This document shows, one piece after another, positions 2 to 4,423 of a DNA stretch of 36,852 nucleotides. Positions within the stretch are counted from its first letter, which is position 1, and the number at the start of each line of letters is the position of its first letter. The notes under the pieces were generated by a model. That model ran no database searches. It was given only the letters and a program-made list of their open reading frames with translations, and was not told where the DNA came from. Origin of the DNA: a bacterium (GTDB lineage Bacteria; Zhuqueibacterota; Zhuqueibacteria; Oceanimicrobiales; Oceanimicrobiaceae). The stretch spans positions 1-36,852 of the forward strand of contig JBHHXN010000036.1 in assembly GCA_046757025.1 (NCBI GenBank), in the 5' to 3' direction. A program made the position numbers and the translations under genes.

Positions 2-1891
2 GGGGGGGGCGGGGGCCCCACACCCCCCCCCCCCTTTTGGGGGGGGGGCGGGGGGGGGGTTAACACCACTCCGATTGAACTATTGCACCCCGGCGATTTG
101 GTATTCTCCCACGACGGCAAACCGCACCGGATCCTTCGTACGGTTCAGCGTGAATACCACGGCCAGATGATCGGCATTCGTCATGAAGGCAGCGAGCAAT
201 TCCTGTGGGTTACAGCCGATCATCGGGTGTTGATTAAAAAGAGAGGTTATACGCTAAGCGGTAAAAGGGATTGGAGCCACAATCTTGCAAGCAGCTTTCA
301 GAAAGCACGCAAATTGCGTAAAGAAATGACCAAAGCCGAACGACTGCTCTGGTCGAAATTACGCAATCGCCAACTGGGTGTGAAATTTCGCCGGCAGCAT
401 CCCATAGGTCCTTATATTGTTGATTTTCATTGCCCGGAACGAGCTTTGATCATTGAGGTTGATGGCGACTCACATTTTACCATAGAAGCCATGGCATACG
501 ACCGGCAACGAACTAACTATTTGCAAGAAACCGGCTTGCGGGTTATCCGCTTTACCAATACGCAAATATATGATTCCCTGGATAGTGTGGTGGATGAAAT
601 AGTAAAAAACATCGGAGAAGTGGAAGCAGACTTTTCAGAAGCGGTTGTTTGGATGGAAGCCAAATATTTACAAAAAGAAGATGTGGTATTTTTCGGAATC
701 GAACTCAAACCGATGAAAATCAGTGAACTAATCGTTGAAGAGGCCCGGGAGACCGTTTACGATTTGGAAGTAAAAGAGAGTCACTCCTTCCTTACCGAAG
801 TGTGCGCGGTACATAACTGCGGCAGCGGCACCACCGCGGCGGTGGCGGAAAAGCTGGGCCGAAAATGGATTGCCTGCGACCTGGGCCGGTTCGCCGTTCA
901 CACCACGCGCAAGCGGATGATTCAGGTGCAGCGGGAATTGAAAAAAGATGGCAAACCTTACCGCGCCTTTGAGGTGCTCAATCTGGGCAAATACGAACGG
1001 CAGTTCTTTTTCGGCGTGCCCGCCAATATTCCGCAAGAGCAGCAGGAACAACTGCTGGAAGCCAAACAGGAGAAATATGTCCGTCTCATCTTAGAGGGTT
1101 ATTCGGCGCAACGAGTACAGGGGCATAAATACCTGCACGGCAAAAAAGCCGGGCGCTTTGTGCATGTGGGACCGCTTTCTGTTCCCGTAACTAAAACGCT
1201 GGTGGAAGAGGTTTTTGAAGAATGCCGCCAGAACCTGATCACCCAGGTGGATATTTTAGGCTTTGAATTTGAAATGGGGCTGGTGCCGTACATCAAAGAC
1301 GAACTGCGCGGGCAGGGTGTGGACATCCGCATGCGCTACATCCCGCACGAAGCCTTCGACAAGCGCGCGGTTGAAAAAGGCCAGGTGAAATTTTACGATG
1401 TGGCATATATGCAGGTCAAGCCGCACATCAAAGGGAAAACCGTCAAAATCGAACTGACCAACTTCACCACCTACTACACACAGGATGACCTGGAAGAACT
1501 GGAAAAGACGCTGAAAAAAGGCGGTTCCAAAGTGGTCATCGAAAACGGGCAGATCACCAAATTGAGCAAAGACAAAAGCGGGATTCTAAAACGGGAAGTA
1601 CTCACTGAAAACTGGCTTGACTGGATCGACTACTGGGCGGTGGATTTCGATTACGAGGATAAAAAGGAAATCATTCAGATCAAAGAAGATAATAGAGTAA
1701 AAGAAATCTGGAGCGGCAATTATATTTTTGAAAATTTGTGGCAATCGTTCCGGACTAAAAAAAATCAAAAAATTGAATTGATTACCGCGCCGCACACTTT
1801 TGAAAAGGCGGGCAAATATAAAATCATGGTGAAAGTGGTGGACATCGTCGGCGTGGACACCTCGCACGTAATTGAAGTGGAAATAAAGTAG
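2..1891 (+). CDS. Site-specific DNA adenine methyltransferase (Type III R-M Mod-like), 5'-truncated, intein-containing
   Basis: The frame is open from the window edge, so the TTG at 83 is probably not the real start. After the intein comes SAM-binding motif I context CGSGTTAAVAEKLGRKWIACDLGRFA. The C-terminus WLDWIDYWAVDFD...KVVDIVGVDT is typical of Type III Mod-like proteins. The catalytic DPPY/F motif is not in the window. Confidence 0.85.
   Translation, partial: GGGGGPTPPPPFWGGGGGGVNTTPIELLHPGDLVFSHDGKPHRILRTVQREYHGQMIGIRHEGSEQFLWVTADHRVLIKKRGYTLSGKRDWSHNLASSFQKARKLRKEMTKAERLLWSKLRNRQLGVKFRRQHPIGPYIVDFHCPERALIIEVDGDSHFTIEAMAYDRQRTNYLQETGLRVIRFTNTQIYDSLDSVVDEIVKNIGEVEADFSEAVVWMEAKYLQKEDVVFFGIELKPMKISELIVEEARETVYDLEVKESHSFLTEVCAVHNCGSGTTAAVAEKLGRKWIACDLGRFAVHTTRKRMIQVQRELKKDGKPYRAFEVLNLGKYERQFFFGVPANIPQEQQEQLLEAKQEKYVRLILEGYSAQRVQGHKYLHGKKAGRFVHVGPLSVPVTKTLVEEVFEECRQNLITQVDILGFEFEMGLVPYIKDELRGQGVDIRMRYIPHEAFDKRAVEKGQVKFYDVAYMQVKPHIKGKTVKIELTNFTTYYTQDDLEELEKTLKKGGSKVVIENGQITKLSKDKSGILKREVLTENWLDWIDYWAVDFDYEDKKEIIQIKEDNRVKEIWSGNYIFENLWQSFRTKKNQKIELITAPHTFEKAGKYKIMVKVVDIVGVDTSHVIEVEIK
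62..817 (+). mobile_element. Intein (Hint domain, N-terminal block A not visible) with an embedded DUF559/Vsr-like PD-(D/E)XK endonuclease at about 296-613
   Basis: PIELLHPGDLV (N2), VTADH (block B, 209-223), WMEAKYLQKEDVV (N4), VYDLEVKESHSF (block F), VHN/C splice junction (His 812-814, Asn 815-817, Cys+1 818-820). The insert ARKLRKEMTKAERLLWSKLR..FRRQHPIGPYIVDF..IEVDGDSH..DRQRTNYL..GLRVIRFTN is the DUF559 signature. Confidence 0.9.
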
Positions 1892-2233: not shown

Positions 2234-4423
2234 ATGCCCCCAAACCTGAACCACGAGCTGAAACGCCACTTTGGATTTGACCGCTTTCGGCCCGGACAGC
2301 TCGAGGCTGTTCAACATATCCAGAACAAGAATAACGTGCTGGTGGTGATGCCCACGGGCGCGGGCAAATCGCTGTGCTACCAGTTGCCGGCGTTGCTTAG
2401 CGATAAAACCACCCTGGTGGTGTCGCCGCTCATCGCTTTGATGAAAGACCAGGTGGAGTCGCTGCAGGTGCTGAACAAATCCGCCACCTTTATCAATAGC
2501 TCATTGAGCAAACCCGAGGTGGACAAACGGGTGCAGGGTCTGCAGCAGGGGCGATATCGCTTGGTCTATGTGGCGCCGGAGCGCTTCCGCAGCAACGCGT
2601 TCCTGGCGGCGCTGGCCAAAGTCGAAATTCATCTGCTGGTGGTGGACGAAGCGCACTGCATTTCGCACTGGGGGCACGATTTCCGCCCGGACTATTTGAC
2701 CTTGAGCAAAGTGATCGCCTTGCTGAATCAACCCACGGTGGCGGCGCTTACCGCCACCGCCACCTTAACTGTGCAGGACGACATCGTTCGGCATCTCGGC
2801 TTGAAGAAGTGTCAAAGGGTCGTCACGGGATTTAATCGGCCCAATCTCTCGTTTGAAGTGGAATACGCTTATGAGGACGCTACCAAATTGCTCTTCATTT
2901 CAAAGCTGTTGAATCGCAACGGCGCCAGCGCCATCATCTACACCAGTACCCGCGCCAAAGCCGAAGAAGTTGCCGACTATTTGCGCATTGTTTGCAAATG
3001 CAAATGCGATTATTATCACGCCGGCCTGAATGCGGTGGAGCGTTCCCGTATTCAGGAATCGTTCATGACCGACCAGACTCGGGTCATCGCCGCCACCAAC
3101 GCTTTCGGCATGGGCGTGGATAAAGCGAACATTCGCCACGTCATCCATTTTAATTTGCCCAGCACCCTGGAGGCTTATTACCAGGAAGCCGGCCGGGCGG
3201 GCCGCGACGGCAAGCCGGCGCGCAGTATTTTACTGTACTCGCCACAAGACCGCGCCATTCAGGAATGGTTTATCGAAAACAGCCTGCCGGAGTGGGATGA
3301 GCTGGCACATATTTTTGATCTGCTCAAAGATGCCGCCAGCAACCATTTTGTGCGCACCAGTCTGGGCTATTTGATGCGGATGACGCAGTTTTACGAAACC
3401 AAAATCCGCGTGGCCATTGCAGAGCTGGTGAACGAAGGTTTTTTGATCGACCGCGGCGATGAAAGCGGTATGATGAATTTCAAGCTGCCTCCCCGGCCGC
3501 GGGTTGATTTTTCAAATATCGTTCGGCGCATCCACGCCCGAAAAAAATACAAGTACCGCCAGCTCAACCAGATTATTGATTATTCGGAGAGCAATCGTTG
3601 TCGTCGGCGAATTATTTTAAAGCATTTTGGCGACACCGGCAGCGCCGAAGCCGAGCGCTGCTGCGACAATTGCGAATCCCAAAAGGCCGTGCAGGCGAAA
3701 CCGCCGAAATCCGGGCAAGATTACACGGAAACCGAAAAAGCCGCGCTCATCATTTTGCACGCGGTCAAACATCTCAAGCGCGACGTGGGACGGTCGCGTT
3801 TGGTAGAGATTTTGACAGGTTCCAAAGCCAGGGATATTTTCGAATATGGCTGGAACAAATCCAAATACTACAGCCGGCTGCAGCATTTCACCCAAAACCA
3901 GTGCCGGGATTTTATCGATCAGCTTCTGAAGAATCGCTTCCTGAAACTGGTGGGTAGCGATTATCCCGTGCTGAAATGCACTCCTCGCGGCGAGGAGGCG
4001 TTACAGAATTTAGCCAGCATTGCACTGGCGATGAATGCGGCACAAACGCCGGCGCCACCGGACTCGCCTTTGCGTCAGATTGCCGGTTTAACCCCTACCC
4101 AGCAGAAGACTCTGGCCTTGTTTCGTGAAGGTCAAACGGCGGAGGAAATCGCCGAACTGCGCGGATTGTCCGTGGGGACGATTTATACGCACATCAGTCA
4201 GCTCATCGGGCAGGGTCTGGTGCAGGTTTCCTCAGTGGTGCCAGTGGGCAAGATTAAAAAAATTCGTGAAGTGATGCGCCATGTAGGTGCTGGCGCCCTG
4301 AGTCCCATCAAAGAGCAGCTGCCGGAAGAATTCAGCTATGAGGAAATTCGCTGTGTGGTGGCGGCAGAGAGTTTAAAACCGCCTAAAGCGAGCTCAAAAC
4401 ACCCGGAACAAAATAATGTATGA
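2234..4423 (+). CDS. recQ: RecQ-family ATP-dependent DNA helicase with Zn site, RQC and C-terminal HTH
   Basis: FGFDRFRPGQ, MPTGAGKSLCY, VDEAHCISHWGHDFRPDY, ATNAFGMGVDK, QEAGRAGRDG, CRRRII..CCDNC. Confidence 0.93.
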   Translation: MPPNLNHELKRHFGFDRFRPGQLEAVQHIQNKNNVLVVMPTGAGKSLCYQLPALLSDKTTLVVSPLIALMKDQVESLQVLNKSATFINSSLSKPEVDKRVQGLQQGRYRLVYVAPERFRSNAFLAALAKVEIHLLVVDEAHCISHWGHDFRPDYLTLSKVIALLNQPTVAALTATATLTVQDDIVRHLGLKKCQRVVTGFNRPNLSFEVEYAYEDATKLLFISKLLNRNGASAIIYTSTRAKAEEVADYLRIVCKCKCDYYHAGLNAVERSRIQESFMTDQTRVIAATNAFGMGVDKANIRHVIHFNLPSTLEAYYQEAGRAGRDGKPARSILLYSPQDRAIQEWFIENSLPEWDELAHIFDLLKDAASNHFVRTSLGYLMRMTQFYETKIRVAIAELVNEGFLIDRGDESGMMNFKLPPRPRVDFSNIVRRIHARKKYKYRQLNQIIDYSESNRCRRRIILKHFGDTGSAEAERCCDNCESQKAVQAKPPKSGQDYTETEKAALIILHAVKHLKRDVGRSRLVEILTGSKARDIFEYGWNKSKYYSRLQHFTQNQCRDFIDQLLKNRFLKLVGSDYPVLKCTPRGEEALQNLASIALAMNAAQTPAPPDSPLRQIAGLTPTQQKTLALFREGQTAEEIAELRGLSVGTIYTHISQLIGQGLVQVSSVVPVGKIKKIREVMRHVGAGALSPIKEQLPEEFSYEEIRCVVAAESLKPPKASSKHPEQNNV

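Follow-up and report, generated by a model that had tools for sequence, protein, structure and literature searches.

An intein family in Type III Mod methyltransferases with a DUF559 nuclease in the loop between blocks B and N4

In this study, we investigated an intein at the start of contig C36 (JBHHXN010000036.1) of a Zhuqueibacterota assembly (GCA_046757025.1; 5.96 Mb, 95% complete); the window, by which we mean the whole stretch of DNA analysed, comprises 36,852 nucleotides from base 1 of this contig onward. The intein, at 62-817, has its HN/C end inside the S-adenosylmethionine (SAM)-binding motif I of a Type III Mod methyltransferase, and it harbors a DUF559 domain as the sole nuclease domain detected in it. 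This domain lies in the Hint loop between block B and block N4, while the loop that canonically houses intein endonucleases, about 35-40 residues from the intein end, is empty. The DUF559 intein family has more than 100 members and signs of continued mobility, and constitutes an exception to the rule that intein endonucleases occupy one loop. Judging from the sequence comparisons below, we lean towards the explanation that the nuclease came from a DUF559 cassette flanked by BoxC hairpins, that the intein would splice by the class-1 route, and that the nuclease would cut or nick empty motif-I alleles and thereby drive homing.

Frame 2 runs without a stop from the contig start as far as 1891, and residue numbers refer to the translation of 62-1888; all features of this frame lie on the forward (+) strand. 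The Hint domain's N-terminal portion (N2 and block B) occupies 62-238, with T51-x-x-H54 (TADH) of block B at 212-223. It is followed at 239-298 by a family-specific linker before the nuclease, a candidate DNA-recognition extension in which W71 and P75 are conserved in the homologues, W71 being invariant. Beyond the nuclease (299-613), block N4 (WMEAKYLQKEDVVFF) was found at 650-694 with its tryptophan at 650; it aligned to W81-V93 of the Mtu RecA intein and corresponds to strands 195-199 and 208-211 of the structure model. The canonical endonuclease loop, at 695-712, is a short turn between model strands 208-211 and 216-237. Blocks F and G with the His-Asn end occupy 755-817, and the intein C-terminus profile TIGR01443 matched residues 232-253 above its cut-off; H251 is invariant and N252 nearly invariant among the homologues. 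The HN pair is at 812-817 and Cys+1 at 818-820, so that an earlier note, made from the letters of this DNA alone, was correct, coordinates included, in describing an intein with Hint motifs and an HN/C junction directly before CGSGTT of motif I. An AlphaFold2 (AF2) model built on a 53-row alignment (pLDDT 87.5, pTM 0.75, with low confidence at residues 61-70) matched Hint folds with Z scores of 13-16 (up to 16.0). Hint fold, block B TxxH, terminal HN and Cys+1, which are features of class-1 inteins, were all observed, and Cys1, which lies beyond the contig in the window, is present in the complete homologues. These begin with C-V/L-R-K-G-T after DFF or DPT (DFF/CVRKGT, DPT/CVRKGT), and the empty alleles DFF/CGSGT and DPT/CGSGT read through, indicating a precise in-frame insert. 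From Cys1 of the homologues together with TxxH, HN and Cys+1, the intein is likely to splice by the class-1 route and thus to rebuild motif I. As a Type III Mod has its SAM-binding motif split by the insert, the host would need splicing for methylation as well as for restriction. The third-codon-position guanine-cytosine fraction of 287-817 (nuclease and C-terminal Hint part) was 0.44-0.47, as against 0.53-0.68 in ten other genes of the window, which is consistent with a foreign origin.

With reference to the nuclease itself, Pfam DUF559 (PF04480) matched residues 80-184 with an E-value of 5.7e-34 and 116.7 bits (cut-off 20.6), covering profile positions 5-108 of 109; the domain is of the Vsr-like PD-(D/E)XK type, with E93, D121, H138 and D147 as putative catalytic residues. 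A phmmer comparison with the Mtu RecA mini-intein aligned residues 35-58 to 55-77 and residues 197-209 to 81-93, at weak E-values of 0.003-0.03, and these alignments on either side indicate that DUF559 stands where a short turn would otherwise lead from block B to N4. The nuclease part of the AF2 model matched DUF559 and Vsr folds, namely 3hrl (Z 15.0), I-Bth0305I 3r3p (Z 11.3) and Vsr 1cw0 (Z 10.3). The complete DUF559 domain between block B and N4 that the earlier note had described is therefore supported by Pfam, the phmmer alignment and the model alike, and the model also bears out its short linker from N4 to block F without an endonuclease at the usual site. The insert ends about 58 residues before the intein C-terminus. 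This arrangement is shared by the family: in all 53 parsed complete inteins (53/53) DUF559 lies between the block-B histidine and the N4 tryptophan, with a spacing of 134-144 residues, and N4 and block F are 22 residues apart in 35 of them and 52-103 apart in the other 18, where the long loops inspected contain repeat peptides. Among 95 sister Hint domains with TxxH and no DUF559, an N4-like motif was found within 90 residues in 30, the block-B histidine being 3-72 residues from N4; a motif-level scan detected a LAGLIDADG-like motif near N4 in 16 of those 30, and in 16/16 it came after N4. Pfam LAGLIDADG_3 was present in 12 of 13 sister proteins checked. Four sister inteins of the LAGLIDADG type (P0231, P0248, P0307 and P0320) also have inserts between block B and N4; these are of the CxCGCG type and may serve as accessory DNA-binding modules. 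We take the DNA recognition region of PI-SceI to occupy this Hint loop as well.

The nuclease appears to be maintained. Among 152 aligned rows, chosen for possessing the DUF559 motif, 149-151 retain each of the residues E93, D121, E132, D134, H138 and D147. The D121-H138-D147 spacing (17 and 9) equals that of D196, H213 and D222, the residues given for I-Bth0305I in the relevant passages of PMC3239194, the equivalence being one of spacing and not of residue-level superposition. In the five pairs that were unsaturated, out of those formed by 21 loci and the window, the ratio of nonsynonymous to synonymous substitution rates was 0.11-0.15 in the nuclease core and 0.08-0.16 in the Hint part; purifying selection acts on the nuclease as it does on the Hint part.

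The contig start is of poor quality. The G-rich letters at 1-24, to which no strand applies, are assembly noise: the long contigs of runs X1, X2 and X4 begin at 25, and X2 and X4 show differing letters before base 25, open in frame 2. At 25-62, on the forward strand in the loop after block A, there is a corrupt BoxC-like hairpin, made up of a C-run, a short loop, a G-run and another G-run, that is full of errors and folds as a 10-bp stem; its position matches that of hairpins in 20 of 23 related intein loci, and it is the likely cause of the contig break. The intein is truncated at its 5' end, with block A and Cys1 upstream of the contig start, and solved Hint structures align to the window model only from their residue 13-17 onward. 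A tblastn search of the assembly with homologous N-exteins, including that of a 90% orthologue, found no N-extein, returning a distant methyltransferase on C18 or nothing. The corrupt bases 1-62 and the lack of Cys1 and N-extein in the assembly are what one would expect if the window copy had come from a chimeric join at the contig end or were a dead relic that does not splice, but this is very improbable. The stretch is present in four hydrothermal-vent runs, all from one study and one of them perhaps the source sample; their contigs span 25-1648, 25-1615, 131-2300 and 25-2300 of the window, and in all four runs 700-1100 is covered in one piece with 0-6 differences, so the junction of intein and extein is real. 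The chimeric contig end that the earlier note had named as a possible objection was thus not seen. The open frame and the intact blocks B, F and G and Cys+1 also speak against a relic, as does the Res gene described below, whose 5' end runs off its contig as expected for an operon split by assembly. The contig of vent run X4 shows five differences from the window at 841-871, just past the insertion site, and hardly any elsewhere, as if the population held the intein in two flank variants.

The C-extein at 818-1891 (+), from Cys+1 of motif I (CGSGTT), was identified by PADLOC as MTase_III (PDLC03633, E 1.4e-55), while N6_N4_Mtase matched from residue 253 with E 2e-4, below its curated cut-off and with only the last 29 profile positions present. 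The insertion point is the F/C bond of motif I. An orthologue of the same family in a related genome (G012) is 90% identical and empty, and stands in res-mod order; in this orthologue (L082, on G012:C25) Gly replaces Cys at +1 (DLF/GGSGT), making intein splicing impossible there. In the genome of the window, C120:3-467 encodes the first 155 codons of a Res 89% identical to that of G012, up to the contig end, so that a res-mod operon was probably split by the assembly, its linkage being inferred from two contig ends. The remainder of the window consists of housekeeping genes. Directly downstream, at 2234-4423, is a RecQ-family helicase with an RQC domain and a C-terminal helix-turn-helix, which is not adjacent in the orthologous G012 locus. 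Between the two genes, a short intergenic stretch at 2085-2175 is matched by many unrelated contigs and shows a depth spike with loose ends at 2131 and 2166; it is probably a dispersed repeat of the heptamer type.

A search with residues 1-300 retrieved at least 120 proteins, all with DUF559, which public databases label merely as DUF559 or methylase. The HN/C junction is at the same site in 117 of the 119 listed homologues (own protein excluded), 112 with HN/CGSGT and five with a variant motif I; the other two are decayed. Three host groups were recognized: Mod family A, to which the host gene in the window belongs, Mod family B (PDLC03632) and, less often, a CGCGT type, with families A and B having only about 35 residues in common after the site. 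By record title the hosts include Chloroflexota, cyanobacteria, Poribacteria, Armatimonadota, Nitrospira, Leptospiraceae and Planctomycetaceae, and the DUF559 intein family is old and widespread, not a local novelty. Inteins and hosts have different histories. On a tree of 58 inteins, the starred branches force at least seven switches between families A and B, a topology that unites the A-hosted inteins in one clade is rejected (p-AU 1.7e-6, 58 rows), and the window intein clusters with three B-hosted inteins; in some pairs the inteins are 80-88% identical and the exteins about 40%. Among 123 family-A C-exteins (78 empty, 45 filled), the window falls in a clade of support 100 with 41 empty alleles, which were fetched by similarity to the window and are therefore enriched near it, and the nearest filled exteins are 58% identical to that of the window. 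The intein was found in one of 40 related genomes (G036, in a B host), and three orthologues of the same Mod family that cover the site are all empty.

The intein-less alleles that the earlier note had suggested looking for at the site were found in several lineages. Three of 17 Microcystis genomes are filled, and the genus has two precisely empty alleles, one alongside a filled copy in the same genome; of 29 genomes in a Poribacteria family three are filled, one of these being parsed at no more than its N-junction, and empty alleles occur in 12; and the same vent runs contain empty alleles of related methyltransferases from other organisms, with DFF/CG across the site. The intein thus moves independently of its host gene. 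It might be thought that DUF559 plays the part of a passenger, or has a function for the host such as Vsr-type mismatch nicking, and that the intein spread only with the transfer and recombination of restriction-modification (R-M) genes, as the patchy occurrence of Type III R-M genes among related genomes would allow and as the free DUF559 protein VsrA of Caulobacter, proposed as a mismatch-repair nickase and found to damage DNA where cytosine methylation is lacking, according to passages of PMC12907096, could suggest. We regard this as improbable: the intein and extein trees conflict strongly, no use of T:G repair is known for N6/N4 methyltransferases, to which the hosts belong, and a nuclease-free allele should then be common, yet none was found in the lists searched.

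This absence was pursued with a Hint-only profile against 1.84 billion representative sequences, which gave 1766 matches, 49 of the best 150 being family members. The other 101 of these best 150 representatives include none with the motif-I junction, and no DUF559-less allele at the site was found among the 120 matches listed or the best 150 of the 1766; five intein-bearing matches without DUF559 are fragments that begin within or after DUF559. The mini-intein alleles proposed in the earlier note did not come to light in this material, and its suggestion that a mini-intein invaded by DUF559 had become a new homing unit stands only in part: mobility is supported by host switches, purifying selection and empty alleles, and the mini-intein ancestor is not, as the nearest other Hint domains are mostly LAGLIDADG-bearing at the usual site. 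Among the representatives, the window intein's best-scoring relative (P0297, 52%) is a stand-alone open reading frame (ORF) of 308 residues that starts with MSVRKGT and ends with HNN. Of the 49 members, 15 are in methyltransferases (two of them reassigned by hand from the class given by the script), 16 are truncated or frameshifted and 18 lack a methyltransferase C-extein. Many of these 18 host-less copies lack Cys1 or HN, and the six nuclease residues are kept in all 15 that could be aligned. Strict allele-to-allele homing may consequently not be the whole mechanism.

We also noticed repeats around the DUF559 genes that bear on their origin. In complete homologues, Pro/Gly-rich repeat peptides follow block A, which at the DNA level are C-run/G-run hairpins like BoxC/TM-ECO, and the distance from Cys1 to the next motif is 37-129 residues in 53 parsed proteins, compared with 16-20 in the sister Hints. 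The complete member L007, of 266 residues, has no loop repeats. A relaxed scan, whose stricter form had no match in the genome of the window, detected a hairpin within 250 nucleotides in 21 of 24 intein loci (1.57 per kb, against 0.12 further out) and in 44 of 56 non-intein DUF559 matches (1.98 against 0.07 per kb). BoxC-like repeats occur elsewhere in the genome of the window, on C17, C72, C122, C235 and C258. In addition, C254:26-400, outside the window, is a DUF559 gene that stands by itself and whose start bears a BoxC-like purine/pyrimidine repeat, and this contig breaks just past the gene, apparently at the start of a second repeat. Two intein loci (L023 and L024) have hairpins within the intein that directly adjoin the nuclease. 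The DUF559 outside inteins that comes closest on the tree (L031; support 94 on a short alignment) is inserted in frame with flanking hairpins, and its linker is similar. Taken together, these loci point to a BoxC-flanked cassette as the source of the nuclease. Hairpin-flanked DUF559 was also seen in frame, without an intein, in the large host proteins of L031, L040, L052, L060 and L072, presumably relatives of R-M enzymes, methionine synthase and leucyl-tRNA synthetase. Again, the divergent inteins P0125, P0128, P0129, P0132, P0133 and L024 have DUF559 at the same site and loop without the family linker. The DUF559 domains of P0125, P0128, P0129 and L024 fall among free genes on the tree, and a single DUF559 clade is not rejected (p-AU 0.41, 0.60); more than one capture of DUF559 is possible.

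The same repeats allow a different and clearly less probable explanation, in which the nuclease is the mobiliser of a BoxC/DUF559 cassette that would nick BoxC-type hairpins or loose targets and move the block with few flanking codons; the intein would then be a vehicle that renders landing in motif I harmless, and ectopic landings would leave host-less copies. The hairpin enrichment at free genes and intein loci agrees with this, as do the hairpin of the Microcystis intein loop, which has many 97-100% identical copies across the host genomes, and the frequent host switches despite the few residues that families A and B share after the site. Five of 24 loci (L017-L020, L023) lack a methyltransferase remnant within the locus, two of which (L017 and L020) retain only a few motif-I-like codons on each side; L017, L020 and L023 sit between unrelated genes that we assume to be menB/menA-like, corrinoid-protein-like and sugar-transporter-like. 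However, orphans may have another source, as in three loci (L004, L011, L013) the methyltransferase decays around a surviving intein, and the insertions into methyltransferases are codon-precise at one bond. Free DUF559 genes have their hairpins concentrated about -130 to -210 and +225 to +300 relative to the core. In 20 of 23 loci of the main intein family, by contrast, the first hairpin on the upstream side is met at -350 or beyond, and the other three have none within range; any activity of DUF559 on BoxC would be hypothetical. In a wider form, which we offer tentatively, BoxC/PIT repeats and cassettes could owe their movement to DUF559, and an intein that captured it could have become a hybrid hopping to distant methyltransferases and unrelated sites by way of a few codons of homology. 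If so, inteins would have a way of spreading besides classical allele-specific homing.

Returning to homing by an intein with a cassette-derived nuclease, which we prefer, the course of events may be pictured as follows. A DUF559 cassette flanked by BoxC hairpins would have landed in a tolerant Hint loop, and a LAGLIDADG domain, if there was any, would have been lost before or after this landing. The precursor would splice by the class-1 route, restoring motif I and the methylase, and the freed intein might nick or cut empty motif-I alleles, which would be repaired by recombination from the filled allele over the short conserved flanks of motif I. Several observations weigh against this course. 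Only about 20 residues separate block B from the nuclease, with no N-terminal NUMOD-type DNA-binding region and nothing like the 166-residue N-terminal part reported for I-Bth0305I in PMC3239194, leaving homing-level specificity unexplained. No close donor of the window intein was found, the best matches having 52-58% identity. Strict homing does not predict host-less copies that keep the nuclease; the retrieval of empty alleles by similarity biases the extein tree; the pairs behind the substitution ratios overlap in sequences, and folding constraint could explain their values; and every enzymatic step, splicing as well as cleavage, has been deduced from sequence. One small protein makes testable what DUF559 targets, how inteins jump across some 35 shared residues, and how BoxC spreads.

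With regard to known systems, a structural study of 2019 (PMC6801210), in the parts bearing on this, placed all intein endonucleases at the C35 site, 35 residues from the C-terminus, and called this puzzling, as random invasion should have yielded exceptions. The window intein resembles the class-1 inteins PI-MtuI/Mtu RecA, PI-PfuI, PI-TkoII and PI-SceI in Hint fold (Z 9-14.5), TxxH and HN/C, and resembles canonical class-1 inteins in its site in a conserved nucleotide-binding motif and in its sporadic distribution, but its nuclease is DUF559 instead of LAGLIDADG or HNH and ends about 58 residues from the C-terminus, not between N4 and block F at the C35 site. We found no description of a DUF559 intein family in the open-access literature; PMC9403480 mentions a DUF559 gene, undescribed there, in a section devoted to intein-containing genes, and its figure or supplements may list a member. 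With I-Bth0305I of the EDxHD group it shares the Vsr-type fold (3r3p) and the D-H-D spacing, although it belongs to the DUF559 family, with 45% identity to 3hrl and 22% to 3r3p. Vsr-like homing endonucleases are also associated with inteins in the relevant portions of PMC2677866 and PMC3239194, on fractured-gene loci, and of bioRxiv 2025.01.02.630785. There they have ORFs of their own, placed in introns or between split inteins (PMC2677866) or running anti-sense within actinobacteriophage inteins (bioRxiv 2025.01.02.630785, which in the passage concerned cites the split-intein loci as the sole earlier intein-associated report). The nuclease studied here is minimal and in frame, and would be an in-frame Vsr-type intein nuclease where earlier reports had only separate or anti-sense ORFs. 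The DNA recognition region of PI-SceI (PMC8966425) is likewise a DNA-directed insert in a Hint domain away from the endonuclease site, without the nuclease role of the DUF559 insert. Mycobacteriophage N6_N4 methylases contain inteins as well (sections of PMC5050341), in the same class of host enzyme, while the hosts here are cellular R-M genes, for which the phage and plasmid collections gave no full-length match, and the nuclease is another one. The extein switching through shared nucleotide-binding motifs reported in part of bioRxiv 2025.01.02.630785 shows the same jumps between genes over short motifs, with two switches there and many here. Lastly, the hairpins have the C-run, short loop, G-run and second purine run of the BoxC/PIT/TM-ECO intrastrand-triplex repeats, which are dispersed in many genomes (PMC4666352, passages on these repeats); unlike BoxC of Escherichia coli, given there as always intergenic and unlinked to mobile elements, they are translated in frame inside the intein and clustered at DUF559 genes, with stems that vary from the consensus.

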